Of a stretch of DNA of 15,788 nucleotides, positions 1,030-15,204 are shown piece after piece. The stretch lies in the NCBI GenBank assembly GCA_043816965.1, contig JBDRHK010000046.1, positions 1 through 15,788 on the forward strand, written 5' to 3'. The notes beneath the pieces were generated by a model. That model was not told the origin of the DNA. It saw nothing but the letters and a program-made list of their open reading frames with translations, and searched no databases. Made by a program: the position numbers and the translations under genes. How positions within the stretch are numbered: position 1 is the stretch's first letter; each line of letters opens with the position of its first letter. This stretch comes from Candidatus Iainarchaeum sp. (GTDB lineage: Archaea > Iainarchaeota > Iainarchaeia > Iainarchaeales > JAFCCJ01).

Positions 1030-4000
1030 ATGGCATCAGCTGAATCTTCTAATAACATCTACACCAAACTTGAGGACAAATGGTATGGCTTTCTGGACAA
1101 AATTAATTCCACAATTCCGATATATGGCATAATTGACCCAATAGACAAAATAATCCCCTCATTTATGCTTTTTTTGCTTGGCATAGTTTTTCTGCTTATT
1201 GTTGCAGGAGTTTTTGGAATTTTGCTGCTTGCTCCAGGCGGGCCGCAGACAGGGGAGCTGAGGCTGGAAATTATTGATGAAACCGGTGCGGGAATTGATG
1301 GTGCCTATATTTCAATAACTAATATTTCCCCCACCGCAAGTGGCTATGCTGATGGGGATGGAAAGATAACGCTTAAGGTGCCTGCGGAAACAGATTTGGA
1401 GGTGGAAATATCCAAAGGCGATTATGAAAGCGAGGACCGGACACTTAAAGTAAAGGGGGCCAAGCTTGAGAAAACAATCACCCTGCGTTTACTGCTAACT
1501 TCATCTTTCCCAAAAACCATTAAATTCACAGGGCCTGACGGCAAGAAAATTGTGAACAAGGAAATCAGGGTTGAATTCAGCTGTTCAACAGGCAAAATAA
1601 TGGAGCAATCGGAATTCTTAGTTAACAGCGGGGAGATAACCATTACTCCGCCACAGGGCTGCGGCATACTTAGCGCAAATGTAATTTCCGATGGCTATCT
1701 TTCCAACAGCTATTCCATAACCAATTCAGGGGAAATAATAAGCCTTGAAAGGGAGGATGTCCCTGAGGGAGGGATTCTTATCCATGTCAGGGATGCGGAA
1801 AACAACAATCCCTTGAGCGGGATACATGTAACAATTAGGGACGATGCAGGGATTAAGAAAGAGGGCATTACACAAACAGGGGAACTGAACCTGACTCTGG
1901 AGGTTGGCAGCTACTATGCAAGCTTTTCTGATGACACATTAAACTATGCGACAAAAACCATTAATTTTACCATAACTGAGGGGGATATTGAGAGCATAAC
2001 CGCAAGGCTGACAAAAGATGTCAAGGCGTTTTTAAGGGTCAGGGTTATCGATGACAACAATGATGAGTTGATTCCAAGGGCAAAGATTGTTGTAAGGGAT
2101 GGGGATGGGAAAACAATTGATGAGCAAATTAGTGATTTCAATGGCAATGTGGTTTCTTTCCCTATAGAGAAAAATGGATTGTATTACATCAGCGCCTCTG
2201 CCGAGGATTATGTTATGAGTGGGGAAAGGGAGGTTGATTTGACAGCAAAATCAGATGCCGCAACAGTTGAGGAAACAATTGCCCTGGAAAGCTGCACCCC
2301 CGCAACCTGTGGAAGGGTTAGGGTAAGGGTTTATGATGAGGACCGTCTGGCTGTTGAGAATGCAAGGGTTTCCTTCTATAATGCTGAAACAGGGTTTTTG
2401 GTTGCCGCACTGGGAACTGAAATAACTGATGTTAATGGCGAGGCTGAATTCACAGGAATTCCCTCAGGAGAGTATTATGCAATCGCGCAGAAATACCCTT
2501 CTTCAGGAACATCTGAAACAAAGGCCATTGCGCAAAGTGAAGTTACGGAATTCACTGTCTGGCTTGAGATAGGGGATGGGGTGCTTGAGATAAAGGCAAG
2601 GGATGATGATGGAATGCCTGTTCCCTTTGCATTTGCGGAGCTGAAAAGCGAGGGAGGGGAGGAATTGGGAATTATTCCCCTTGATGCCGAGGGCTATGGC
2701 GCTTATCCATCAAAGGCGGACAAAAGGCTTTATGTAAGGGTTTATGCCGAGGGCTACACCTCATGGACATCAACTGCGCAGCAGATTGTGAAAGGGCAGA
2801 CTGTTTCTGTTGATGCCATCCTTGTGGAGGAAATTTTGGGGGATTCTCCTAGTGCAGAATTGATAGGAGTTTTCAGGGAGGGAAGCAAATCTGCGGTTGA
2901 CAAGCTTGAGGCAGGAAAAACCTATATTGCGAGATTTTCCATAACAGTTCCAAGCGAAACAGATTTCGAATATCTGGGTTTGCATGTGAGAACAGGGCAG
3001 ATGGAAAAACTGGAAAAGGACCAGATTTTCATAAATTATGTAAATGCCCCGAATGCGTCTGTAATAAAGGCCACAACTTACACACCCCCAAATGGCTATT
3101 CATTTGATGAACTCCATGTGACAAACGGCGATGCAAAGTGGGCAAACGCGGTATTTGGAAGATGGGTTAACCCCGGGATTTACAATGTTGAAGTTGAATT
3201 GAAGGTAAGGGCCGACACAACTCCAGGTTATGTGCTGCCATTGCACTACCGTGTATGGGCAGTTACAGAAGATAATGAATTTTTAAGGGCGCCATATGAT
3301 GAGGAACTTGGGTTTAGTGAAAGTGCCGCCGGAAAACATGCATTGTATGCAAAGGCATTTGACAAGTTCTATGTTGAATCCGCGCCTGAAATCTGCGACG
3401 ATGATTTCTGCTACAGTGAGCGCGTGATTGACATCTCCCAGGATTTAATTCTGGGCGACTCCCCCTATGCACTGAACCTGTTCGATGATTTTAATGTTGT
3501 TTTCTCAATCACCAACAATTCAAGGACTGTGCATAATGATTCAAATTTGAGGCTGAAAAACACCATGGACGGGGCCACGGTTGATGACACATTGAGCATT
3601 GAAAGCTACAGGGTAACAAATGCCGATGAGGAGAGCTTTTCCTCGGATTTGCCTGTTTATGAATTTGCGGATTCAATTGACCTTGGAAATTTCACCCAGA
3701 ACAAATCTGTAAGAGGTTCACTTGTCCTGAAACCAAAGAAGGTTGGCGAGAGCCAGATTCAGGTAAGGGTTGTAAGCGATATGGCCCAGGTTTTTGAAAA
3801 GATTATCCCTTTCACTGTTTACAGTTCTGAGGATTTGAATGTAAGTGTCTGGCCGGATAATCTGCCGGCTTTTGTTGATATTGCCCTGAGGATTAGTGTG
3901 GAACTTGAGGGAGGGGATGATGATGGCCTGGAGATTGAGGATGCATTTGTGAGGGTTACAAGAATTGCCCCTGATAAATCCGAGACTGAGTTTAGCGATT

Positions 4001-7000
4001 TCACTTCTCCCGCAGGGGAGGCTAATTTCACAATTCCTGCCTCTTCCCCTGGAACTAAAATTATTGTTGAGGTTGAGAAGGCCGGCCATAAAAGCGAGAA
4101 AATAACAAAGGAAATCAGCAGGAATATTATTGAATTTAAGCCGAAAACCCTGGAAAGCAATCTGGATGTCAGCGATATTACTGAGGAATTCCTTGAGCTT
4201 GAGCTGAAGAATCTGGTTCCGCCAACACTTAAGATTGTTGAACTCAGGTTTTCGGGAAATTTCCAGGGGCTGCTTGATGAGGAAAAGATGGGGAACTGGC
4301 TGCAGCAGTATGAGCAATACCTTGAGCTTGAGCATATGGATGTTGAAACAATCCAGGTGCAGACCGCGATAAGTGATGAGGCAAAACTTATAACTAAAAA
4401 CAAGGAGCTGGCTGGGAGTCTGCTTATTGATGTGAACAATCTTGGGGACACCGCAAGCTATCCCTTTGTGGTGCCTGTAACAGTTAATGTTTCCCTTGGG
4501 CAGAAGCCATCCAATGCCCCATGCATCACTGTTTCCTTGAAGGAATGGAAGGACTCGGCCCTTGAGGAAAAGATTTCCAGGGAATTCGAAATAGAGAACA
4601 ATTGCCTTAACAAGAACAATGAGCCAATGCAGCTTCGGAACCTCCAGGCAAGGATTGTCTGGAAGGGCAACAATCTGGGGAATGTTGAGCTGCTTATAAG
4701 CGACCCTGAAAACGGGAGCCAGTCCGAGATTTTGAAAGAAACTGTTTACACCACATTTTTTGAGGGAATTCCCCCTGAACACACCTATAACGCAACCCTT
4801 TCCTTCACCCCAAAAGTGGGCCATTTGGGTGAAACCGCCAAATTTGATGTTGAGATTGATGCAGAACTAATTACATCCTCAGGAAATCAGTTGGTTGGGG
4901 CAAGCAATTCAGTGGATGCCGAACTGCTTATTATAAACCTCAGCAAGTGCATTAAGTTTGACCCAAATCCGGAAATGGGAATTAAGATTGATAGTGATGA
5001 GGAGGAGACTGAATTCAGCATCGATACAAGTGGCTGCGGGGATATTGACATTGACCTCAAGTTTTGCGATTCTGGGAGGGATAATTGCAGGGGAGGGGCA
5101 AGTGAGGGAAGCATTCTTGTCCATCCATGGAGTTTCACTGATGTCAGTTCAGGGGATGAAAAAACAGTGAGGGTAACAAGGCAGGAGATTCCGGGAATTT
5201 ACGGGATTAATATTGATGCAAGGCCTGCCGGCGGGGGATTCAGGCAGGTTGCTGTAATGGATGTAATAATTGAGCCTGATGGGCATTCCTTCTTTGAAAT
5301 GGGCAAATATGATTTCTCGATTGTGGGAGATGGGGCAATGGATGCCACAACCCTTTACAACCACATGGTTGAGGAGCAGGTTTATGTCAGGGCAGACCAG
5401 TGCTCATGGGGAACGGCAATCGATAACCAATACTGGGGAGCTGCCGGTTTATTGATGAGCGCTGCAGGGGCAGGGATGATTGCTGCGAGTGCGATGACTG
5501 TTGGAGCAGCTACAACAGTTACTTATGCTAGTGGATTAGTCATTAGCAATGCAGTAATAGGGGCAGGAAGTCAAATAATAGGAGGTACTGTTACTGCAAC
5601 AGGATATTCTGGTGCGCCGTTAGGTCTTACATACAGTTCAGCATCTCCTATGGCGCTATCAGGGGGCGTTGTTGAAACAGTACCAGGCACAACCTTAGGC
5701 TCATCAACCACGGCAGGCAGCACCTCAATGGGCGCCTTGGGCGCGCAGCTGCTGGCGGTGGGGCTTATTATCCTGATTTTATACCTCACAGGAATTATTG
5801 GGCCTGCGGATTGTGAGGATGTTTTCCTGACCAATCCCCTGCCGGATTATGTGGTGAATTTGGCTGGAACTGATGATTTGCCTGCAGATGCAAGGGCAAT
5901 AATTATGGACAGAGGTGAAATTGACTCTGAATTCAATTTAGATGTAAGGGATATTTATGCCGAGGGTGCCCACAACACCGAGGAGGTTGGGATGGTTTTC
6001 ACAAATGAGGGAATCAGTGAGGGTGAACCGGTTTATTCATTGGCGAGAGTGCGTTTTACTGAGCACATACATGGCGATGACAGCCATAGCGATTCGGCTT
6101 CGGATTATGATGTGGAATGTAGTAACGGGAGCTTCGCCCCTTACTGGATTGGCGGTGAATCCAGCCAGGGCTCGTGCAATGGTGTGCGCGAAATAAGCTC
6201 TGAGGAGAAATTCCACTTAAGGTTTAAAACGCTGGATATGGTGGAATCCCTCCCTGAAGTAAATTTCGATACATTTGCATGTGCAAATGGTTTGCAGATA
6301 GGAAGGAGCGGTGAAGGGGCCCTTCCAAGGGTGAAACTGAACTGGGAATGGACAGAGCCCAAAGGCATTGCATATGATGAATGTGATTCAGGCAATGCGG
6401 ATTACATTTACTGCGACGCCGCCCAATTTACGATTGAGACCAACAAGAGGTTGAAAAGGCTTTATGAATTCCTGCAGGCAAACAATTTCGACCTGCGGTG
6501 CCCGAAGCAAATTGAATCCACAGGCATAAAAGGATTCAATGACACCAATTCAACACATGCTGTTGAGCCAGATAGTATAGGTTTGCAAAGTATTTCTGCC
6601 ACAAAAACCGTAAATTCGGCACAAGTCGTGGCAACAGTGAGGAACAATAATGCCATCCCGGCCGGTGCAACAGTTCATATTATCCTTACAGGCCAGGGGG
6701 CGCCAAGCCTTGAATGTGATGCATTGGTTGTCGGCCTGGCGCAAAATGGTGCTGAAAGTGCCAGCTGTAATTTCACACCATTGGAGGAAACGGTTTATGT
6801 TGCAACTGCAATTATTAGTGCCAGCAATGTGGATATTGACACAACCCCTGTTTCTGTTGGGTTCATAATAGGTGAATCCGGGGTGGCACTGGATTGCGAA
6901 TTGCCAAGAACGACAGAAACCCTCTATGGAGAACCGATGATTAACAGGTTTATTGACGCAGACCAGACAGTAAACTGGACATCCGCCATTCCGAACAAGG

Positions 7001-8250
7001 AAACACTGAATGATTTGCTGAAATTCAATGCCTATTTGATTAAGGATTCCTACAGCCCTGACTTTATGAATGATTTCGTTAATTACTACACTTCAAGCCC
7101 GTTGGCAGATACCCCCACATTTTTCACAGATTATGAATTTGACAGGATAATGCGCTATGGGGCATTGCAGGTCAGGCAGAAATATATTGAATCCTACCAG
7201 CTCTCTGCCCCTGGTTTGTATGATGTGGAAATTGCGGCATACTTTGATGATGACTGGCGCTTTATAGATGTGGACGGAAATGTTTCTGTTTCAGTGGCAG
7301 TGGTGTTGCAGCATATTGATGACCCCTCCCCCAACAGCCCGTTCTACAGCATGCCATTTGATGGGCTTGTGGGTTTGGAGGGGAACAGCTTCAACAGGCA
7401 ACTTTATGGGGCTGCATTCATTAATGAAAATATTGAGGATCTTGTAAGGATAGATGAGAATGAAACCCCATTGAACACTTTCCCAGATACTGGCTCAAAT
7501 CCTGTGGCAACTGTAAAGGTTGAGATTGAGGACAGCATATATAATCTCAATTCAGCCCTTGGCACAAGGGGCGAGGTTTTGGCCATAGAAAACAAGTCAG
7601 GCGGGGTTAAGGAATTGACCTTCTCCCCATCACTTGCAACGCCAGTGATGCTTAAAGCAAGCAGCGAAATAACAGATGAGCCGCTTTCAGTATTTTATGG
7701 GGCAAGCGTAAACGACGCCACTGTGGAGGTTGGGGGCACTCTCACCTACTGGAGCGGGGCAGGAAGCTGCCTTGATTTTTCAGGAGTGCCGGTTTATGAG
7801 GCGTTTGATGAGAAGCCGGACAGGGCGGCAACAGACAAGGACAGGCTGCAGTTCTGGACAACGATTTATGGGGTGGATTGGGCAAATATGAATTATTCAG
7901 GCGATGTATATCTAAGGACAATCTTTTACAGCTCCCCTGAGGGAGATTCATTGCTCCAGGCAACCTATCCTTTGGATCAAATGGAATTCCTTACGCCTGA
8001 TGAAACAGGGGATTCTGTTGCACTGAATGGGATCAGCACAATGGCTTACAATGGAAATGACACCATCAATTCCATACAGGATGTGTTTGATTTGGTTGGG
8101 GAAGGGCAGCTCTGCGCAACCAATTCAGGAAATAAAACCACATTCTGGTGGAACCCGCAGGATGTTTACCTGCAGCAGGGAAGCCGGAGAAGCATACATG
8201 GCTTAACTGAGGGATTGGCTGCAGGGGAAAGCTGCATAGGCTTTGATTAG
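1030..8250 (+). CDS. Giant (2406 aa) membrane-anchored cell-surface glycoprotein with tandem carboxypeptidase-regulatory-like/PEGA-like beta-sandwich repeats
   Basis: Uninterrupted 7.2-kb ORF. N-terminal TM segment (FMLFLLGIVFLLIVAGVFGILLL). About six tandem ~85-aa units (~1255-2826) with patterns like VRVYDEDRLAVENARV...TDVNGEAEFTGIPSGEY, and one more near 3925-4100. Asp/Glu-rich, with many N-x-S/T sequons and paired cysteines. Internal hydrophobic region at 5425-5808. C-terminal domain shared with the upstream paralogue. Confidence 0.88.
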   Translation: MASAESSNNIYTKLEDKWYGFLDKINSTIPIYGIIDPIDKIIPSFMLFLLGIVFLLIVAGVFGILLLAPGGPQTGELRLEIIDETGAGIDGAYISITNISPTASGYADGDGKITLKVPAETDLEVEISKGDYESEDRTLKVKGAKLEKTITLRLLLTSSFPKTIKFTGPDGKKIVNKEIRVEFSCSTGKIMEQSEFLVNSGEITITPPQGCGILSANVISDGYLSNSYSITNSGEIISLEREDVPEGGILIHVRDAENNNPLSGIHVTIRDDAGIKKEGITQTGELNLTLEVGSYYASFSDDTLNYATKTINFTITEGDIESITARLTKDVKAFLRVRVIDDNNDELIPRAKIVVRDGDGKTIDEQISDFNGNVVSFPIEKNGLYYISASAEDYVMSGEREVDLTAKSDAATVEETIALESCTPATCGRVRVRVYDEDRLAVENARVSFYNAETGFLVAALGTEITDVNGEAEFTGIPSGEYYAIAQKYPSSGTSETKAIAQSEVTEFTVWLEIGDGVLEIKARDDDGMPVPFAFAELKSEGGEELGIIPLDAEGYGAYPSKADKRLYVRVYAEGYTSWTSTAQQIVKGQTVSVDAILVEEILGDSPSAELIGVFREGSKSAVDKLEAGKTYIARFSITVPSETDFEYLGLHVRTGQMEKLEKDQIFINYVNAPNASVIKATTYTPPNGYSFDELHVTNGDAKWANAVFGRWVNPGIYNVEVELKVRADTTPGYVLPLHYRVWAVTEDNEFLRAPYDEELGFSESAAGKHALYAKAFDKFYVESAPEICDDDFCYSERVIDISQDLILGDSPYALNLFDDFNVVFSITNNSRTVHNDSNLRLKNTMDGATVDDTLSIESYRVTNADEESFSSDLPVYEFADSIDLGNFTQNKSVRGSLVLKPKKVGESQIQVRVVSDMAQVFEKIIPFTVYSSEDLNVSVWPDNLPAFVDIALRISVELEGGDDDGLEIEDAFVRVTRIAPDKSETEFSDFTSPAGEANFTIPASSPGTKIIVEVEKAGHKSEKITKEISRNIIEFKPKTLESNLDVSDITEEFLELELKNLVPPTLKIVELRFSGNFQGLLDEEKMGNWLQQYEQYLELEHMDVETIQVQTAISDEAKLITKNKELAGSLLIDVNNLGDTASYPFVVPVTVNVSLGQKPSNAPCITVSLKEWKDSALEEKISREFEIENNCLNKNNEPMQLRNLQARIVWKGNNLGNVELLISDPENGSQSEILKETVYTTFFEGIPPEHTYNATLSFTPKVGHLGETAKFDVEIDAELITSSGNQLVGASNSVDAELLIINLSKCIKFDPNPEMGIKIDSDEEETEFSIDTSGCGDIDIDLKFCDSGRDNCRGGASEGSILVHPWSFTDVSSGDEKTVRVTRQEIPGIYGINIDARPAGGGFRQVAVMDVIIEPDGHSFFEMGKYDFSIVGDGAMDATTLYNHMVEEQVYVRADQCSWGTAIDNQYWGAAGLLMSAAGAGMIAASAMTVGAATTVTYASGLVISNAVIGAGSQIIGGTVTATGYSGAPLGLTYSSASPMALSGGVVETVPGTTLGSSTTAGSTSMGALGAQLLAVGLIILILYLTGIIGPADCEDVFLTNPLPDYVVNLAGTDDLPADARAIIMDRGEIDSEFNLDVRDIYAEGAHNTEEVGMVFTNEGISEGEPVYSLARVRFTEHIHGDDSHSDSASDYDVECSNGSFAPYWIGGESSQGSCNGVREISSEEKFHLRFKTLDMVESLPEVNFDTFACANGLQIGRSGEGALPRVKLNWEWTEPKGIAYDECDSGNADYIYCDAAQFTIETNKRLKRLYEFLQANNFDLRCPKQIESTGIKGFNDTNSTHAVEPDSIGLQSISATKTVNSAQVVATVRNNNAIPAGATVHIILTGQGAPSLECDALVVGLAQNGAESASCNFTPLEETVYVATAIISASNVDIDTTPVSVGFIIGESGVALDCELPRTTETLYGEPMINRFIDADQTVNWTSAIPNKETLNDLLKFNAYLIKDSYSPDFMNDFVNYYTSSPLADTPTFFTDYEFDRIMRYGALQVRQKYIESYQLSAPGLYDVEIAAYFDDDWRFIDVDGNVSVSVAVVLQHIDDPSPNSPFYSMPFDGLVGLEGNSFNRQLYGAAFINENIEDLVRIDENETPLNTFPDTGSNPVATVKVEIEDSIYNLNSALGTRGEVLAIENKSGGVKELTFSPSLATPVMLKASSEITDEPLSVFYGASVNDATVEVGGTLTYWSGAGSCLDFSGVPVYEAFDEKPDRAATDKDRLQFWTTIYGVDWANMNYSGDVYLRTIFYSSPEGDSLLQATYPLDQMEFLTPDETGDSVALNGISTMAYNGNDTINSIQDVFDLVGEGQLCATNSGNKTTFWWNPQDVYLQQGSRRSIHGLTEGLAAGESCIGFD

Positions 8251-8255
8251 GTGAT

Positions 8256-8645
8256 TTGTTGTTCCCGTTGTTTATGGAAGGGTTTTTCGAACTTTTAGGT
8301 GATTTGGACCTGATTTTGAAAATCTTTGTTTTAATGACGATTTACAGCTTTGCAAAGAACCATTTGGGGAACAATTTCCTGGCGATTATAATTGTGGGGG
8401 CATTTACTTATTTCATTTTCTTCAGCGGCCTTTGGTTCATTTTCGGGGGAATCTACCTGCTCTACATGCTCCTGACATTCGGCATTGCAGGAATCATGAT
8501 TGATTACTTCTTTGTTGGAGGGGGGCAAACAGCCGGGGAGGGCAATGAATCACCAGTGAGCAGTGGTGCGGATGTTGCAAAAAGGATGGCATCTCAAAGG
8601 GCAAGGCAGGGGCCGGCACAGCGAAGGGTTTTTGGGGGGAAATAA
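8256..8645 (+). CDS. Small multi-pass membrane protein (paralogue family member 1)
   Basis: About three hydrophobic helices plus a polar, basic C-terminal tail. An AGGTGA SD overlaps the stop of the giant gene. Start is uncertain (TTG 8256, TTG 8259 or ATG 8274). Confidence 0.85.
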   Translation: MLFPLFMEGFFELLGDLDLILKIFVLMTIYSFAKNHLGNNFLAIIIVGAFTYFIFFSGLWFIFGGIYLLYMLLTFGIAGIMIDYFFVGGGQTAGEGNESPVSSGADVAKRMASQRARQGPAQRRVFGGK

Positions 8646-8647
8646 AA

Positions 8648-8968
8648 ATGGACGACAGGGGGAATGTTGTATTTATCATTATCGGGGCCTTTATCGTTAT
8701 TGCCCTGCTTCCGCCTATACTGATGTTTCTTTTCCCGCCAATACAGATTCTTTTCCAGATAATGATGATTTTCATGCTTTATTCAATAGTCAGGGCATAT
8801 ATGGGGGATGGGCCTTTAACACTGGTGCTTAGCGCAATTCTCATCTATTTCCTTGTTTTCAAATACACATATATTTTCGCGTCATTATGGGTTTTCCAGA
8901 TGCTTTTAGGGGTGCAGTTCCTTTCAGTAGTTATCTGGGGAGTCGGAACCACTATGAGGGGGAAGTAA
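8648..8968 (+). CDS. Small multi-pass membrane protein (paralogue family member 2)
   Basis: 106 aa, almost entirely hydrophobic (~4 TM). ATG is 2 nt after the previous stop. Shares the YSxx(K/R)xx(L/M)GxxxL motif with its neighbours. Confidence 0.85.
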   Translation: MDDRGNVVFIIIGAFIVIALLPPILMFLFPPIQILFQIMMIFMLYSIVRAYMGDGPLTLVLSAILIYFLVFKYTYIFASLWVFQMLLGVQFLSVVIWGVGTTMRGK

Positions 8969-8980
8969 AAATGACTGACC

Positions 8981-8994
8981 AAAAAGGATATATA
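8981..8994 (+). promoter_or_regulatory. Possible internal BRE/TATA promoter upstream of the 9029 gene
   Basis: Purine-rich AAAAAGG followed directly by ATATATA, about 35-41 nt upstream of ATG 9029, in the only sizeable gap of the cluster. Confidence 0.4.
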
Positions 8995-9028
8995 GAATGC
9001 AAGGGTTTAATTTCATAGGGTGAATGGA

Positions 9029-9295
9029 ATGCTGGGAATAATACTTAATGACCTGTTCCTGAACATCCAGATAGTGTTAACCTTATTCATTTTTGTGTGG
9101 ATTTTCAGCTGGGCAAAGCAGGCACTGGGCTCGGCAAAACTTGCGATAATTTTTGCGCTGATTGTTGTCTACCTTACCTTTGTCCAGTTTCCTGAGCTCA
9201 TATGGCTGGCCGTAATTTTGGTCATACTTGCGACATTTGGCTCGGAAGTTTTTTCTAAAATGAACCCCTTTGGCGGGGGAGACCATTTGCACTGA
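9029..9295 (+). CDS. Small multi-pass membrane protein (paralogue family member 3)
   Basis: About three TM helices; motif FSWAKQALGSAKLAII. GGTGA SD at 9019-9023 lies 5 nt before ATG 9029, which favours this start over GTG 9020. Confidence 0.85.
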   Translation: MLGIILNDLFLNIQIVLTLFIFVWIFSWAKQALGSAKLAIIFALIVVYLTFVQFPELIWLAVILVILATFGSEVFSKMNPFGGGDHLH

Positions 9296-9304
9296 GATGA
9301 TTTT

Positions 9305-9622
9305 GTGGAAACGATTATTTTCCTGTTCTCCATACTTTTGCTCCTCTTAACCTGGAGTGCGGGCTATGGCTGGATTGCGGGCGGCATCCTTATCATAATG
9401 GTGCTTTCCACCCGCTCGGCAGGAACCATCATTGTGTTCGCAATAGCCATGGCGGCCATTTATTTTCTGAGTGAGAGTTTCAGCATGCAGGACCTGTTCA
9501 TCCCGCTGATATTCGGGCTGATAGTGCTTTTCCTGATTGTAGGGATGGGCAAGAAACCGGAACAGCCGGAATACTATTCCCCTGATGCCGGCGGCTATGG
9601 AAACCTCCTTGGCGGAATGTAA
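9305..9622 (+). CDS. Small multi-pass membrane protein (~4 short TM helices, Pro/Tyr/Gly-rich tail)
   Basis: 105 aa hydrophobic ORF with GTG start 9 nt after the previous stop. Tail reads KKPEQPEYYSPDAGGYGNLLGGM. Confidence 0.82.
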   Translation: METIIFLFSILLLLLTWSAGYGWIAGGILIIMVLSTRSAGTIIVFAIAMAAIYFLSESFSMQDLFIPLIFGLIVLFLIVGMGKKPEQPEYYSPDAGGYGNLLGGM

Positions 9623-9623
9623 A

Positions 9624-10013
9624 ATGAAATTAGGAATGTTTCTCCTGCTGCTGGTTCTTATTTTCCTATCCATTCATTTCGATGTTATGTGGCTGGGCTT
9701 TTTCCTGGCATTTGTCCTGATAATATATCTTCTTGGTTTGGCCGGCTATAAAACAAAAAATGCCGCAGTATCTGTTGGGAAGGTTGTGGGGGAGGACATT
9801 AATAGGGAAGTTGAGGATTTGAGAAATGCCAAGGGAAAATACCCTGCCTTCAAGGAAATTAAGGGGCTGTATAAGGAGGGCTCGAAAAGGCTTGCGATGG
9901 AACTGGACACAAAAGAGAAGGGTAAGAAGAAATTTGTTGATAAGGAAGTTCTTGATGCTCTTGGAAAAGGCTCAAAGAAATTCATAGCTGCAATGAAAAA
10001 AATATTTGATTAG
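9624..10013 (+). CDS. Membrane protein with N-terminal TM hairpin and Lys/Glu-rich helical domain (129 aa)
   Basis: ATG at 9624 lies 1 nt after the previous stop (TAAAATG), so it is preferred to the overlapping track start at 9585. Two TM segments are followed by a charged amphipathic region. Confidence 0.82.
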   Translation: MKLGMFLLLLVLIFLSIHFDVMWLGFFLAFVLIIYLLGLAGYKTKNAAVSVGKVVGEDINREVEDLRNAKGKYPAFKEIKGLYKEGSKRLAMELDTKEKGKKKFVDKEVLDALGKGSKKFIAAMKKIFD

Positions 10014-10030
10014 TTAAAATATTTGATTTG

Positions 10031-10555
10031 CTATTTCTTGCCCAGCAGGATTTTCCTGTTGGTTTCGAGAATCTTCTCAAGAATTGATTTTAATGCAGAG
10101 GTGTTTGCCTTAACCTCTCCCAAATCCGCCTCAAGGGTATTCATCTTCCGGTCAATAATCTGGAGTCTCTGCGAAAGGTCGCTCTGGGTAGAAGAGTCAA
10201 TTTTGGCGTGGAGGTCATCAACCCTTCTATGGACCTCATCAACCTTTTGGGCATGCTCCTCGAATTGGGTTTGGGTGGTTGTATTTGCCAAATCATGGTC
10301 TTCCCTTATCCCCGCGATCTGTTGGTTTATGTCTTCCCCTGATGCAGGAACTTCCCCTGCACCGGCAACAGGGTCTTTTTCAGAAGGATCAGGTTCTTCC
10401 CCGGATGGAATGCCTCCCTTTACTTCATTAATTATGGACTTAATTTCCCCCTCCTCCAAACCAATGTCCCTGAGGGTTGATTTCACAGTCTCATCATCAA
10501 TTCCGGATTCATACATCTTCTTTACAGTTGAAAGAACCACTTCTTTATTTACCAT
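10031..10555 (-). CDS. Hypothetical protein: small N-terminal helical bundle, acidic Pro/Gly linker, C-terminal coiled coil
   Basis: 174 aa. GAGGCG SD upstream of ATG. N-terminus SGIDDETVKSTLRDIGLEEGEI; heptad pattern in VDEVHRRVDDLHAKID and MNTLEADLGEVKANTSALKSILEKI. Confidence 0.85.
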   Translation of the reverse strand: MVNKEVVLSTVKKMYESGIDDETVKSTLRDIGLEEGEIKSIINEVKGGIPSGEEPDPSEKDPVAGAGEVPASGEDINQQIAGIREDHDLANTTTQTQFEEHAQKVDEVHRRVDDLHAKIDSSTQSDLSQRLQIIDRKMNTLEADLGEVKANTSALKSILEKILETNRKILLGKK

Positions 10556-10698
10556 ATAAACGCCTCTTAAACTTCCTATATATTAAATCAAACCCAAATA
10601 TAAACATTTCCGGGGACCCTTTTTCCTGAATTATGCCTCCAAGGGAAAAGCAATAAATACTCAATTGCCTATATCTTTATGCTGAATTTGGTGGTTTA

Positions 10699-12207
10699 AT
10701 GCCTGAACTGTTTAAGATTGGAGACGGGCCATGGAATATGATGTTTTCCGGGAAATTTATGGACCATGAGGTTGATATTTACTCCAATCCAGATAATGTC
10801 CTGCTTGTGCTTATATGGGACAGGCAAGGTGGAAATTACAAGGGCGCTGTTATTGAGATATATAAGGTTTTTGCAGCAATGGGAGAAACCGAAAATTTTG
10901 TTGAAAGCCTCCCGAGAGAGGTCATAGTACTTGCAAAGCATACTAAGGAGCAAACGGTTAAATTTTTCCTTCTAGGTGGAGGGGCAAGCTATGTGAAATA
11001 TGAGGAAAGGGGCTTTGTAAAGGAAATTGATTCCCAGCTGAAAAGCCTTTCCATCTCCGCCAAAATGATAAAGGATGTTTCAAAGGCATATGATTTAACC
11101 CTTCAGGACCTTAAGAACGCTGATGAGGAGGTAAGGAATTCATTCTTTGCCCAGCCCCTCCTTATACCTATTGTGACCACCGCAGCCCATGCCGCAGGAG
11201 GGAGCACAGAGGCCTCTGCCATTGGAAAGGGGGAAATAATGCTCGGCCTCACAAAGGATAAAAACAAGGTTGTTGAGCCTATCAGCCTTTTCACAAGGAC
11301 AATTGTAAGTGGCGGGAGTGCATCAGAAAGGGGCCATTTCCTGCACATTCTTGCCGAGGGTTTCCTGCTTTCAGGAATTCCTGTTGTTATTTTTGAACGT
11401 GGGAGCAAGTTTTCAGGGCTCGGGGAATCATCAAAGGAACTTGCCGAGCTGCAAAAATACCAGGTTGAGGCAGACCCAATGGGCTTTCCTGTAAAACATT
11501 ATTATCTCTCAAAGCAAATCTTCGGGGATTTGGAATTTCTCAGCCCTGAAGGAATGCTGGATTCCTTTGGGGTCGGGGAGAACAACGTAGGCAACCTAAT
11601 TGTTGATTTAATGAAAAGCGAACCAAGCAGGGGCATGGCAGAACTGGCATCAAAGATAAGGAAAACCAAGCCCAAAGACAATGCCACCTCTTTTGAAATA
11701 TTCAAGGCCGCGAGGATTATTTCGCTTATGGGCTCCACCTATCCTAACTTGTTTGAGGGCAAAAATGATTTGGATGACCTTTCCAAAAAGCCCTCAAAGG
11801 GAATTGGCCGCTCAGGAATAATCCACTTCGAGGACTATGATTTAAGGGCCTCACTTATTGTGATTCACAACATTCTGAACGGCCTGATTCAGGAAAGCAA
11901 GAAGATGGGGGCAACAAGGACTGTTAAGCTTGTGGTTATACTTGCAAATGCCGGTGAAATAATACCAAAAGACAACCCAAATAGTTATGCAAAGCAGTTT
12001 TCCGCACTGCTATCTGAACTGAACAAATATGGGATTGCATTTGTGCTGGATACTGAAAGTACCATAGACCTGCTCCCAGATGTTGCAAATCTTGGGGAAT
12101 CAAAGATAAATATAGTCGGCGGAAATGAGGCAGGAGTGCAGATCAAGCAGAGAAAGGGTTACAGGGTTTTGTTGAGGCCAGGGCTTAGTGCCTGTTCTGA
12201 AAAATAA
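10699..12207 (+). CDS. HerA/FtsK-superfamily (DUF87/DUF853-like) P-loop protein with degenerate catalytic motifs
   Basis: HerA-like motif order: IMLG...RTIVSGGSASERG (Walker A position, 11311-11334), IPVVIFE (strand 2), LVVILANA (Walker B position, 11929-11952), ELNKYGIAFVLDTESTIDL (equivalent to ExRKxG...TQ). Extra ~170-aa N-terminal domain. GGTGG SD. Confidence 0.78.
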   Translation: MPELFKIGDGPWNMMFSGKFMDHEVDIYSNPDNVLLVLIWDRQGGNYKGAVIEIYKVFAAMGETENFVESLPREVIVLAKHTKEQTVKFFLLGGGASYVKYEERGFVKEIDSQLKSLSISAKMIKDVSKAYDLTLQDLKNADEEVRNSFFAQPLLIPIVTTAAHAAGGSTEASAIGKGEIMLGLTKDKNKVVEPISLFTRTIVSGGSASERGHFLHILAEGFLLSGIPVVIFERGSKFSGLGESSKELAELQKYQVEADPMGFPVKHYYLSKQIFGDLEFLSPEGMLDSFGVGENNVGNLIVDLMKSEPSRGMAELASKIRKTKPKDNATSFEIFKAARIISLMGSTYPNLFEGKNDLDDLSKKPSKGIGRSGIIHFEDYDLRASLIVIHNILNGLIQESKKMGATRTVKLVVILANAGEIIPKDNPNSYAKQFSALLSELNKYGIAFVLDTESTIDLLPDVANLGESKINIVGGNEAGVQIKQRKGYRVLLRPGLSACSEK

Positions 12208-12741: not shown

Positions 12742-12789
12742 ATCAAATCACTTTAATTAAAATAGATGTTGTTGCTTAAAAACATATCT
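12742..12789. promoter_or_regulatory. Compact divergent promoter region
   Basis: 48-bp AT-rich gap between divergent ATGs (12741 on minus, 12790 on plus). Contains TTTAATTAAAA (plus, about 12752-12762) and TTTTTAAG (minus, about 12775-12782). Confidence 0.45.
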
Positions 12790-15204
12790 ATGGTTTCTGC
12801 CAAAATACGTGGAATTTTGCTTGATGTTAGCTATTCTGTTGATGGGCAAAAGGAAATTTCGCTGCTTCTTTATGTGAAAACCAAAAAGGGGATGGAAGTT
12901 TTTAAGGAGAAAAAATTCAAGCCATATCTTTATGCATTGGTTGATGACGCAAAGAAAAGGGCTGCTGAGATTTCTGAAAATGAATTTGGTGAGGACAAGG
13001 CAAGGCCGCTGAAAGCTGAGGCGGTGAAGATGGCAAATGCCCCTGAAGTTGTGAAGATTTTTTTCCGCAACACCAATCAATTGGTGCAGGCAAGGGAGGA
13101 GATAAAGGGGCTTAAGGGAGTGATTGGGGTAAGGGAGTACGACATTCCTTTCACCCGCAGGTTCCTTATCGACAAGGGAATTGAACCCATGAACTGGGTG
13201 GAAATTGAACTGGATGGGGATGAAATAGAATCAATTAAGAAGATGGATTTGAAAAAGGATGTTATCGGCGAGATGAATATCGGTGCCTTTGACCTTGAGA
13301 CCTATTCTCCAGGGAGGTTCAGCAATCCTGAGAAGGACCCTATATTGATGGCTGCTGTTGCAGGGAAGGATATGGCCGAGGCAATTACATACAAAAAGCT
13401 TTCCGGAAAGGGGGCAAAAGTTGTAAAGTCCGAAAAGGAAATGGTTCAGGAATTGCTTGGCTGGTTTGTGGAAAAAGAGATTGATATTGTTGTCACCTAC
13501 AATGGTGATTCATTTGACTTCCCATATCTAAGGGACAGGGGTAAGAAGATTGGCGTTGACGTAAATTTTGGAATTGGCGGCGAGCCAAAATTTAGGAAAA
13601 AGGGGCTTGACCATGCCGCGCAGCTTAAAGGGATTCAGCATTTGGACGCCTACCAAATGTTGAGGCTGCTTGCAAAATTCGGCGTGGTTTCGCTGATTAA
13701 ATATGATTTGGAGAGCGTTGTTGAGAGGATTTTTGGGAAAACGAAGGAAAAGATTGGCCATAATGAGATTAACGAGCTCTGGGATAGGGGCGAATTGGAG
13801 GGGCTGGCGAAATACAATCGAGAGGATGCGCTCTACACGCTGAAGCTCGCTGAGGAGTATTTGCCATTGCTTGTCGAGTTCTGCAAAATTGCGCACATGA
13901 CACTTTTTGATGTCAACCGCGCGAGTTCCTCGCAATTGGTTGAATCTTTGCTGATTGAAAAGAGTTTGGGGGCAGGGCACCTGATTCCCAACAAGCCCTC
14001 AGAGGAGCAGGCAAAGCAGAGGATGATGCAGACCTTTAAGGGAGGGTATGTCAAGGAGCCTATTGCCGGTCTGCATGAGAATATTGCGGTGCTGGATTTC
14101 CGCTCCCTGCACCCCACAATAATCATCTCCCATAACATTTCTCCCGAAACTTTAAAGTGCAATCACGAGAGCTGCAAGAAAGGGAAGAATATCTCCCCGG
14201 ATAAGGACTGGTTCTGCGAGAAGCAACGGGGATTCTTCCCTGAAATACTGGAGGAGATTCTCGCAAACAGGATTGCGGTAAAGGGCGAGATGAAGAAACA
14301 CAAGCCAGGCTCAAAGGAATACAGGCTGCTGGATGCAAGGCAGCATGCATTGAAAATCCTGCTGAATTCCCACTATGGCTATCTGGCTTTTGCAAGGGCA
14401 AGATGGTATTCGAGGGAGTCGGCAAGGGCAGTTACCGCCTGGAGCAGGCACTACATAAAGGAAGTTATGCACAAGGCGGAGGAGGATGGATTTACTCCAA
14501 TCTACAGCGACACTGACAGCTTATTTATTCTTGTCCCGAAAGATAGGGGTGAGAAGGAGGTTGAGCAGTTTGCAAAGAAGATAAACTCCGAGCTCCCTGG
14601 TGCAATGGAGCTGGAGTTTGAGGGTTTCTTTAAGCGCGGGATTTTTGTAAGCAAACGGGATGGCGGAGCAGCAAAAAAAAGATATGCATTGATTGATTTT
14701 GATGACAATTTGAAAATAGTGGGATTTGAATATGTGAGGAGGGACTGGTCAGGAATTGCAAAGCAGACTCAGAGAGATGTTTTGCAGGCGGTTCTTAAGG
14801 AAGGAAAGCCTGAAAAGGCGGGGGAGATAATCCGCGAAAGGGTTAAGGCACTGAAGAATGGTGAAGTGAAGAAAAAGGACCTTACAATAATGACCAATAT
14901 TCAAAGGCCGCTGAATAAATATGTTGCAATAGGGCCGCATATTGCCGCCGCAAGGAAGGCTGTTGAAAGGGGGAAGGAATTGGGCGTGGGGTCAACAATC
15001 AGCTATATAATTACACGCAAAGGAAAAAGCATTTCTGATAAGGCGGAACTCGAAGAATATGTAAAAGAGGGAGAGTATGACGCCGATTATTACATCTCAA
15101 ATCAATTGCTTCCAGCAGTAATCAAAATAATGCGCGAATTGGGCTTCACTGAGGAAGATTTGAAAGAGGGGGGGAAGCAAAGGACGCTTTCCTCCTTTAG
15201 TTAG
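12790..15204 (+). CDS. polB: Family B DNA polymerase (archaeal PolB3-type) with 3'-5' exonuclease and PIP box; no intein
   Basis: ExoI FDLET, ExoII YNGDSFD, ExoIII YNREDA. Motif A DFRSLHPTII, motif B RQHALKILLNSHYGY, motif C YSDTDS. Also KKRY, GFEYVRRDW and YYISNQLLPAV, with C-terminal PIP box QRTLSSF. Start is ATG 12790 (alternative 12766). Confidence 0.97.
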   Translation: MVSAKIRGILLDVSYSVDGQKEISLLLYVKTKKGMEVFKEKKFKPYLYALVDDAKKRAAEISENEFGEDKARPLKAEAVKMANAPEVVKIFFRNTNQLVQAREEIKGLKGVIGVREYDIPFTRRFLIDKGIEPMNWVEIELDGDEIESIKKMDLKKDVIGEMNIGAFDLETYSPGRFSNPEKDPILMAAVAGKDMAEAITYKKLSGKGAKVVKSEKEMVQELLGWFVEKEIDIVVTYNGDSFDFPYLRDRGKKIGVDVNFGIGGEPKFRKKGLDHAAQLKGIQHLDAYQMLRLLAKFGVVSLIKYDLESVVERIFGKTKEKIGHNEINELWDRGELEGLAKYNREDALYTLKLAEEYLPLLVEFCKIAHMTLFDVNRASSSQLVESLLIEKSLGAGHLIPNKPSEEQAKQRMMQTFKGGYVKEPIAGLHENIAVLDFRSLHPTIIISHNISPETLKCNHESCKKGKNISPDKDWFCEKQRGFFPEILEEILANRIAVKGEMKKHKPGSKEYRLLDARQHALKILLNSHYGYLAFARARWYSRESARAVTAWSRHYIKEVMHKAEEDGFTPIYSDTDSLFILVPKDRGEKEVEQFAKKINSELPGAMELEFEGFFKRGIFVSKRDGGAAKKRYALIDFDDNLKIVGFEYVRRDWSGIAKQTQRDVLQAVLKEGKPEKAGEIIRERVKALKNGEVKKKDLTIMTNIQRPLNKYVAIGPHIAAARKAVERGKELGVGSTISYIITRKGKSISDKAELEEYVKEGEYDADYYISNQLLPAVIKIMRELGFTEEDLKEGGKQRTLSSFS

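Follow-up and report, generated by a model that had tools for sequence, protein, structure and literature searches.

A histidine in place of the steric-gate tyrosine of family B DNA polymerases in the archaeal phylum Iainarchaeota, and the serine that accompanies it

The window analysed in this work is a stretch of 15,788 nucleotides from Candidatus Iainarchaeum sp. (GenBank assembly GCA_043816965.1, contig JBDRHK010000046.1), and it carries on its forward strand a gene for a family B DNA polymerase (PolB; 12766..15204). In this enzyme the tyrosine that serves as the steric gate against ribonucleotides in motif A is replaced by a histidine (His449), and the glycine of the Tx2GR motif by a serine (Ser560). 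The name Tx2GR is taken from PMC4974454. We read the histidine as a probable alternative gate that evolved under selection, and not as a defect. We propose, as a reading that is probable to a modest degree, that His449 is a functional platform and gate held in position by Ser560, and that sugar discrimination would be roughly preserved.

The PolB gene is an uninterrupted frame of 812 codons, counted from its first ATG. The database gene call (P0002) starts 8 codons downstream, at 12790, and yields a protein of 804 amino acids in which His449 is numbered His441. Motif A, of the Dx2SLYP type, reads DFRSLHPTII (14095..14124, + strand; GAT TTC CGC TCC CTG CAC CCC ACA ATA ATC) and contains the catalytic Asp444 together with the steric-gate codon CAC (14110..14112, + strand). 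The histidine encoded by this codon aligns under Tyr410 of the Pfu polymerase, a residue that is Tyr409 in Tgo/KOD numbering. Translation and alignment with Pfu thus bear out the first-pass annotation of this stretch, which had described a natural replacement of tyrosine by histidine at the gate of a PolB otherwise intact. Indeed, when the protein was checked against the family B consensus, the gate (Tyr, or Tyr/Phe) was the one consensus residue that failed. Membership of the family B fold is not in doubt. The frame matches Pfam DNA_pol_B (5.1e-64) and DNA_pol_B_exo1 (1.1e-27), scores 290.6 bits against the NCBIfam superfamily model TIGR00592 (cut-off 239.95), with no NCBIfam equivalog reached at its own cut-off, and retrieves with phmmer the Pfu, KOD, Tgo and 9N PolB chains of the PDB (E 1e-155 to 4e-166). 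The alignment with these Pyrococcus/Thermococcus structures spans residues 18-801. A single PolB gene was found in the genome to which the window belongs (1.34 Mb, 86% complete).

The histidine is widespread among relatives of this enzyme. A word-indexed search returned 120 proteins of 55-70% identity and, once the window's own entry P0002 had been excluded, the gate column of the 119 nearest database homologues held His in 101 and Tyr in 18. A search of 1.84 billion cluster representatives gave approximately 14,000 matches, and the 150 more distant PolBs listed among them mostly have a Tyr gate. In a joint alignment of 266 PolBs the gate was Tyr in 153, His in 112 and Trp in 1. The latter is a distant representative, P0201, whose motif A reads DFRSFWPS and which has Gly at the Tx2GR position.

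We then surveyed 215 species genomes of the phylum with degenerate DNA patterns for the His and Tyr forms of motif A. The His pattern matched 87/215 genomes, with CAC and CAT both in use and 0 control matches; the Tyr pattern matched 79/215, with 1 control match. These counts are lower bounds, as variants such as SMYP are missed and 50/215 genomes match neither pattern. SMYP itself was found in two genomes of genus g73 that match neither pattern. The His gate is common to about half of the phylum. The two forms occur together in a single genome, G102, where the Tyr form belongs to a divergent second PolB. Such a second, shorter enzyme is present in G102 (L021) and G160 (L024), with 752 and 760 amino acids respectively, a motif A of the form E[IL]DFSSLYPSIMV and a motif B of the form WLLV..SFGYT. 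In the other orders of the class (19 genomes) the His pattern matched 0 genomes and the Tyr pattern 13. Among 62 named loci, the closest 16 all carry His, 45 from other lineages all carry Tyr and 1 yielded no motif. Where labelled, the 16 closest His loci belong to Candidatus Iainarchaeum/Iainarchaeota or bear the name 'ainarchaeum', and one of the 16 (L104) is a closed chromosome; the records of the 45 Tyr loci are labelled Woesearchaeota, Nanoarchaeota, Pacearchaeota, Aenigmatarchaeota, Micrarchaeota and others. Across the loci that we fetched, the histidine is encoded by CAT in 23 cases and by CAC in 20.

Family f9 has a His gate of its own kind. Its motif A reads DFRSYHIS in 2/2 genomes examined (L087 in G027 and L088 in G031), with Tyr for Leu before the gate His and Ile for Pro after it, and represents another remodelled PolB active site; its Tx2GR region is MYHLVR and its motif B is KILLASTYG. 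All 22 genomes of this family are without a match to either pattern. The active sites of P0122, P0128 and P0263 resemble the f9 type.

CAC is one transition away from TAC, and a sequencing or assembly error, or a mutation private to this genome, would also produce the observed codon. Read evidence at this position came from the assembled Logan contigs of three public runs, of which X1 yielded 3 pieces, X2 a single piece that stops short of the codon, and X3 none. One 151-base contig, from a related strain with 13 differences and a depth of 3.1, spans 14071-14217 and leaves 14110-14112 unchanged. The sole covering assembled contig therefore does not read TAC, as the check proposed in the first-pass annotation had asked; a single contig of such low depth makes the read-level support consistent but weak, too thin to count as independent support. 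The orthologues are decisive here, and they too answer a check that had been proposed: His is present in the large majority of the nearest homologues, which come from many independent assemblies, in 87 genomes of the phylum with both His codons, in 16/16 of the closest named relatives and in the closed chromosome among them, and it is accompanied by a matching second-site change, Ser560. For the clade as a whole the error explanation is already refuted, and for this genome we give it practically no weight.

His and Tyr have replaced each other repeatedly. In a FastTree tree of 257 database proteins, computed after removal of the motif A columns, the window fell within a pure-His subclade of 44, itself nested in a clade of 126 (support 99) with 102 His and 24 Tyr, and the gate column required at least 14 changes. 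A second tree was computed with IQ-TREE from 77 genome-derived PolBs of the window's order and its sister orders, after removal of motif A and of columns 556-564, and here the gate column required at least 12 changes. Constraining the 39 His rows of this tree to a single clade lowered the log-likelihood by 1406 and was rejected (approximately unbiased test, p-AU 2e-36). At a minimum, this amounts to about a dozen gains or losses of the histidine. Because the outgroup orders and the basal families carry Tyr, the His gate is the derived state, and it arose within the window's order from a Tyr ancestor. Both states also occur within a single genus, g73, where 5 species have His and 8 have Tyr, the 16 residues of motif A being identical apart from the gate.

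The change at the gate comes with a change at a second residue. Ser560 (codon AGC, 14443..14445, + strand) lies within TAWSR (14434..14448, + strand), aligned to TAWGR of Pfu; Thr and Arg of the motif are kept and Gly is replaced by Ser. This position is Gly in Pfu and Gly or Ala in most Tyr-form PolBs; phi29 has Ala. Residue 560 was the strongest difference between His and Tyr forms among the nearest homologues, with Ser in 102/102 His rows as compared with Ala 10, Gly 3, Cys 3 and Ser 2 in the Tyr rows. Across the 266 aligned PolBs the main pairs of gate and residue 560 were His+Ser (104), Tyr+Gly (104), Tyr+Ala (38), Tyr+Ser (5) and Tyr+Cys (4). We also sampled 81 PolBs of the phylum, namely 80 loci fetched from families of mixed and pure gate state plus the window, 77 of them from the window's order. 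These gave 39 His+Ser, 28 Tyr+Ala, 5 Tyr+Gly, 4 Tyr+Ser and one each of Tyr+Cys, Tyr+Glu and His+Thr, the remaining 2/81 having an intein or a truncation at column 560. In the window's order, then, the His gate essentially always comes with Ser560.

A coupling test on the genome-derived PolBs (the 77-row IQ-TREE tree) yielded 10 independent contrasts, in which Ser changed in the same way as the gate in 6.0, in the opposite way in 0 and remained unchanged in 4.0. The corresponding sign test gave p 0.031, a value that rests on 10 contrasts and is uncorrected for the scan of approximately 811 columns; the ranking of the columns serves as the control, and in it column 560 came first of ~811 (5.96 versus 4.58 for the next). 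Within g73, two columns of the catalytic core, and no others, showed a fixed difference between the His and Tyr groups, namely 449 (His in 5, Tyr in 8) and 560 (Ser in the 5, Ala in the 8). The His forms of this genus have CAT with TCG or TCA for Ser560, and their Tyr congeners have TAT or TAC with GCG or GCA for Ala. In the main clade the Ser560 codon is AGC, one step from the Gly codon GGC. A single step does not suffice to turn an AGY serine codon into a TCN one or the reverse, so the His+Ser pair must have formed on at least two occasions, from Gly through GGC to AGC and from Ala through GCN to TCN. Tyr+Ser is present in G078, G153 and G001, whereas none of the 81 sampled PolBs of the phylum combines His with Gly or Ala, a pattern consistent with Ser being permissive for His.

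Apart from the gate and residue 560, the exonuclease and polymerase motifs are all in place on the + strand of the gene. Exo I is FDLET (13288..13302), aligned to FDIET of Pfu; Exo II is NGDSFDFPYL (13501..13530), identical to the same stretch in Pfu; and Exo III is YNREDA (13813..13830), aligned to YSMEDA. Motif B, of the Kx3NSxYG type, reads KILLNSHYG (residues 530-538, 14353..14379), with His536 where Pfu has Phe; motif C, of the YxDTDS type, reads YSDTDS (14503..14520) and provides the catalytic Asp pair; and the KxY motif, KKRY (14674..14685), was seen in the Pfu alignment. The C-terminal tail QRTLSSFS (15178..15201) is a putative PCNA-binding motif by resemblance, with the Q-x-x-L-x-x-F spacing of a PCNA-interacting peptide (PIP) followed by Ser and not by a second aromatic residue. 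The catalytic aspartates and exonuclease motifs are therefore intact, as had been annotated; the PIP box, annotated as intact too, is only partly canonical.

These observations bear on the possibility that the gene is decaying or catalytically dead, and tolerated since the family D polymerase (PolD) replicates the chromosome. PolD is indeed near-universal in the phylum (DP2 in 205/215 genomes), and no PolB was found in G015 (90% complete). Against decay speak the uninterrupted frame of 812 codons, the intact catalytic and exonuclease motifs, the active-site residues that remain invariant across the order at 56-70% identity, and the compensatory substitution, which implies selection on the pocket. 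We regard decay as very improbable, and consider it, like error, effectively excluded.

The histidine of motif B is an observation of its own. Its codon (14371-14373) places a second His in the region of the nucleotide pocket, where Pfu reads NSFYG. Column 536 holds His 54, Phe 42, Thr 5 and Ser 1 among His-gate homologues, and Phe 17 and His 1 among Tyr-gate homologues. His536 is a sub-clade trait with no strict link to the gate, as G078 pairs a Tyr gate with NSHYG.

The reading that we favour can be set out from the geometry of known enzymes. In the KOD and Tgo enzymes an incoming deoxyribonucleoside triphosphate (dNTP) rests its sugar on Tyr409, C2' lying nearest to the ring (PMC5718519, PMC7763228). 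The window gene is predicted from its intact motifs to encode an active, proofreading family B DNA polymerase, in which His449 would replace the usual tyrosine as the platform under the sugar, its imidazole ring stacking under the deoxyribose C2' much as the Tyr ring does. The hydroxyl of Ser560 may fill the space left by the shorter side chain, and perhaps stand in for its hydrogen bond, holding the ring in place; residues 449 and 560 would then be in physical contact. Exclusion of the 2'-OH would be largely kept, as with the His gates of families D and C. PolD, present in nearly all genomes of the phylum, is presumably the main replicase, and PolB would play a supporting role, for instance in lagging-strand synthesis or repair.

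Three lines of evidence point to a preserved gate. First, closely related genomes, down to the members of a single genus, switch between His and Tyr with the same 16-residue motif A. Second, the His comes with a compensating Ser. Third, polymerases of families D and C themselves have His at the gate. In PolD, His931 was identified as the steric gate by mutagenesis, and smaller residues at this position give use of ribonucleoside triphosphates (rNTPs) (PMC7708050); in PolC the gate is proposed to be His1275/His1268 (PMC13492167). Moreover, variants of Tyr409 that weaken the gate are poorly tolerated in T. kodakarensis, though PolB is dispensable in this organism (PMC13136892), so the gate is subject to selection even there.

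Several results weigh against a Ser-supported, preserved gate. Besides the small number of contrasts and the 50 genomes outside both patterns, a first coupling test on the 257 proteins of the FastTree tree was not significant (8 contrasts, p ~0.38): Ser changed in the same way in 3.9, in the opposite way in 1.0 and was unchanged in 3.1, and column 560 ranked only 11th of ~811. Outside the main clade His also occurs without Ser, with Val at residue 560 in P0122, P0128, P0263 and family f9, Thr in P0170 and G175, and Ala in P0240, so Ser is not the sole solution. The combinations of His with Val or Thr carry an aromatic residue before the His, and P0240, a distant representative, pairs SLHP with the motif B KIIAAGFHG. 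The side chain of His is smaller than that of Tyr, and in PolD rNTP incorporation rose as the gate side chain shrank (PMC7708050); by analogy, some loosening of the gate by the smaller His is plausible. Finally, the passages of PMC5718519, PMC7763228 and PMC4974454 that describe the stacking of the sugar on Tyr make no mention of the Gly of Tx2GR.

The size of the side chain also opens a different interpretation, close to that of the first-pass annotation, namely that the smaller His admits ribonucleotides or 2'/3'-modified nucleotides far more readily, that this is adaptive and that RNase HII cleans up the product. In its favour, smaller residues at the His gate of PolD raised rNTP use (PMC7708050), and smaller residues at Tyr409 open KOD and 9N to modified nucleotides (PMC11828419). 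The genome contains two genes of the RNase HII family, and a second His is found in motif B. On the other hand, His and Tyr alternate among close relatives, one genus included, in the same background of PolD and of ribonucleotide reductase (RNR) type; the gain of a side chain at residue 560 looks like compensation rather than opening; gate-weakening variants fare poorly in T. kodakarensis (PMC13136892); and RNase HII is near-universal (14/14 control genomes), so that its presence says little. The lack of any relation to RNR, set out below, speaks against it too. We judge a relaxed gate of this kind to be unlikely.

The DP2 and DP1 genes of PolD are adjacent in the genome of the window, on contig C3, and separate from PolB; together with the two RNase HII-family genes, this answers the genome check that had been suggested. 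No class I/II RNR was found in this genome at 86% completeness, and a class III RNR is present. In the phylum, class I/II RNR was found in 104/215 genomes and class III in 112/215, the two being complementary by family. Among His families, f13 and f14 have class I/II RNR and f4 and f11 class III; Tyr families are likewise split by class (f10 versus f15 and f19); and groups of mixed gate state are uniform, f12 being all class III and g73 all class I/II. The gate state thus follows neither the presence nor the class of RNR. We hence rejected the link to nucleotide scavenging drawn in the first-pass annotation, and the genome of the window itself has a class III RNR.

The histidine could instead tune another property through its ionisable ring, such as pH dependence, translocation, base-substitution fidelity or mismatch extension. 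The Tx2GR motif is reportedly tied to stabilisation of the primer terminus at the active site, going by the title of Mendez et al. 1994 (listed in the references of PMC3762793). In phi29 the gate tyrosine sits in the insertion site between cycles; this residue, Tyr254, enters and leaves the site as the enzyme translocates (PMC4974454). Replacement of the gate by Ala halves the fidelity of PolB and shifts its error spectrum (PMC12634111). Set against this, the gate has reverted often, as would be expected if His and Tyr were near-equivalent in fitness. We consider this explanation rather unlikely, and place it somewhat below a relaxed gate.

The comparison with known systems helps to locate what is particular to this enzyme. 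The polymerases of Thermococcales (Pfu, KOD, Tgo and 9N), of the 'B3' class, share with it the domain order, Exo I-III, the Asp of motif A, Kx3NSxYG, YxDTDS and KxY. They differ in having Tyr where the window PolB has His449, the Gly of Tx2GR where it has Ser560 and the Phe of motif B where it has His536; the window PolB also deviates in parts of its N-terminal region, and its source is an uncultured DPANN archaeon (Candidatus Iainarchaeota, Diapherotrites) known from metagenomes only. The seat of the sugar on the ring of motif A, described for the Thermococcales enzymes (PMC5718519, PMC7763228), would by alignment be common to both. In DP2 of Thermococcus sp. 9N PolD and in PolC, a His excludes rNTPs near the 2' position (PMC7708050, PMC13492167), and in PolD it is proposed to help to position the dNTP as well (PMC7708050). 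The folds of these enzymes, a double-psi beta-barrel in PolD and a Pol-beta-like fold in PolC, are unrelated to that of the window PolB, where the His is part of motif A in the classical palm of family B; the likeness is one of mechanism and not of membership. Engineered PolBs with Y409V/L/A/G are altered at the same position, which controls the acceptance of sugar-modified nucleotides (PMC11828419, PMC13136892, PMC7708050). These variants have small aliphatic residues and discrimination has been deliberately lost, whereas in the natural His variant the side chain is still an aromatic ring and a Ser has been gained at a second site.

One of the N-terminal deviations is at residues ~89-98 (window ~13030-13060), where RNTNQLV aligns to EHPQDVP of Pfu. 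In Thermococcales PolB this stretch contributes Pro90 and Val93 to the pocket that senses uracil. Read-ahead recognition of uracil may therefore differ in the window PolB.

Some further observations concern the rest of the window and the genomes surveyed. In genus g76, from another order of the class (G206-G211, 78-94% complete), 6/6 genomes gave no match for PolD DP2 and 5/6 have a Tyr-form PolB; PolB may be the only replicase in this genus. In the genome of the window, the DP2 frame has 1649 amino acids as compared with ~1140-1170 in most relatives, and the class III RNR match falls into two stretches within long frames, one TAA counted; both genes (G000:C3:6238-7053 and G000:C9:2309-5344) have putative intein insertions. 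Several PolB relatives of 1200-1400 amino acids carry intein Pfam domains. Upstream of PolB, the window contains an open reading frame (ORF) of 2406 amino acids (1030-8250, + strand) in which Pfam detects only CarboxypepD_reg and a SpaA prealbumin-like fold at residues ~430-488, and which is probably a giant surface protein. Between it and PolB, at 8256-12207 on the + strand, are seven ORFs of 129, 106, 91, 105, 142, 178 and 502 amino acids, for which no Pfam match was obtained at E 0.001.

Current reviews and work in polymerase engineering take the sugar gate of family B to be fixed as the Tyr of motif A (PMC13492167, PMC12634111, PMC11828419), and reviews of 2025 and 2026 give this gate as Tyr, or Tyr/Phe (PMC12634111, PMC13492167). 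A full-text literature search retrieved no paper describing a family B polymerase with a naturally occurring His gate, nor any polymerase with Y409H, Y410H, Y412H, Y416H, Y254H or Y645H. In the PolB survey of Kazlauskas et al. 2020 (PMC7544198), the words 'steric', 'tyrosine' and 'SLYP' are absent from the main text, while its figures or supplements could show the column. Specialists in polymerases should find the His gate moderately surprising.

In one archaeal phylum, about half of the members have a His gate, together with a specific second-site Ser, and this pair was reached more than once. For enzymology, the phylum offers a natural double-mutant cycle, His or Tyr at residue 449 against Ser or Gly/Ala at residue 560, and one genus holds both gate states with motif A otherwise identical. 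For engineering, position 517 (Tgo numbering) emerges as a partner of 409. In annotation, neither Dx2SLYP nor Tx2GR is suitable as a strict signature. Only tentatively, His449 and Ser560 might constitute a second natural design of the sugar gate whose chemistry differs from that of Tyr, an ionisable, hydrogen-bonding platform with pH-dependent or relaxed discrimination against 2'-OH or 2'/3'-modified nucleotides, and Iainarchaeota would have toggled it, in about a dozen switches, in response to an ecological variable. If this were true, the His enzymes and their near-isogenic Tyr congeners would be ready scaffolds for polymerase engineering.

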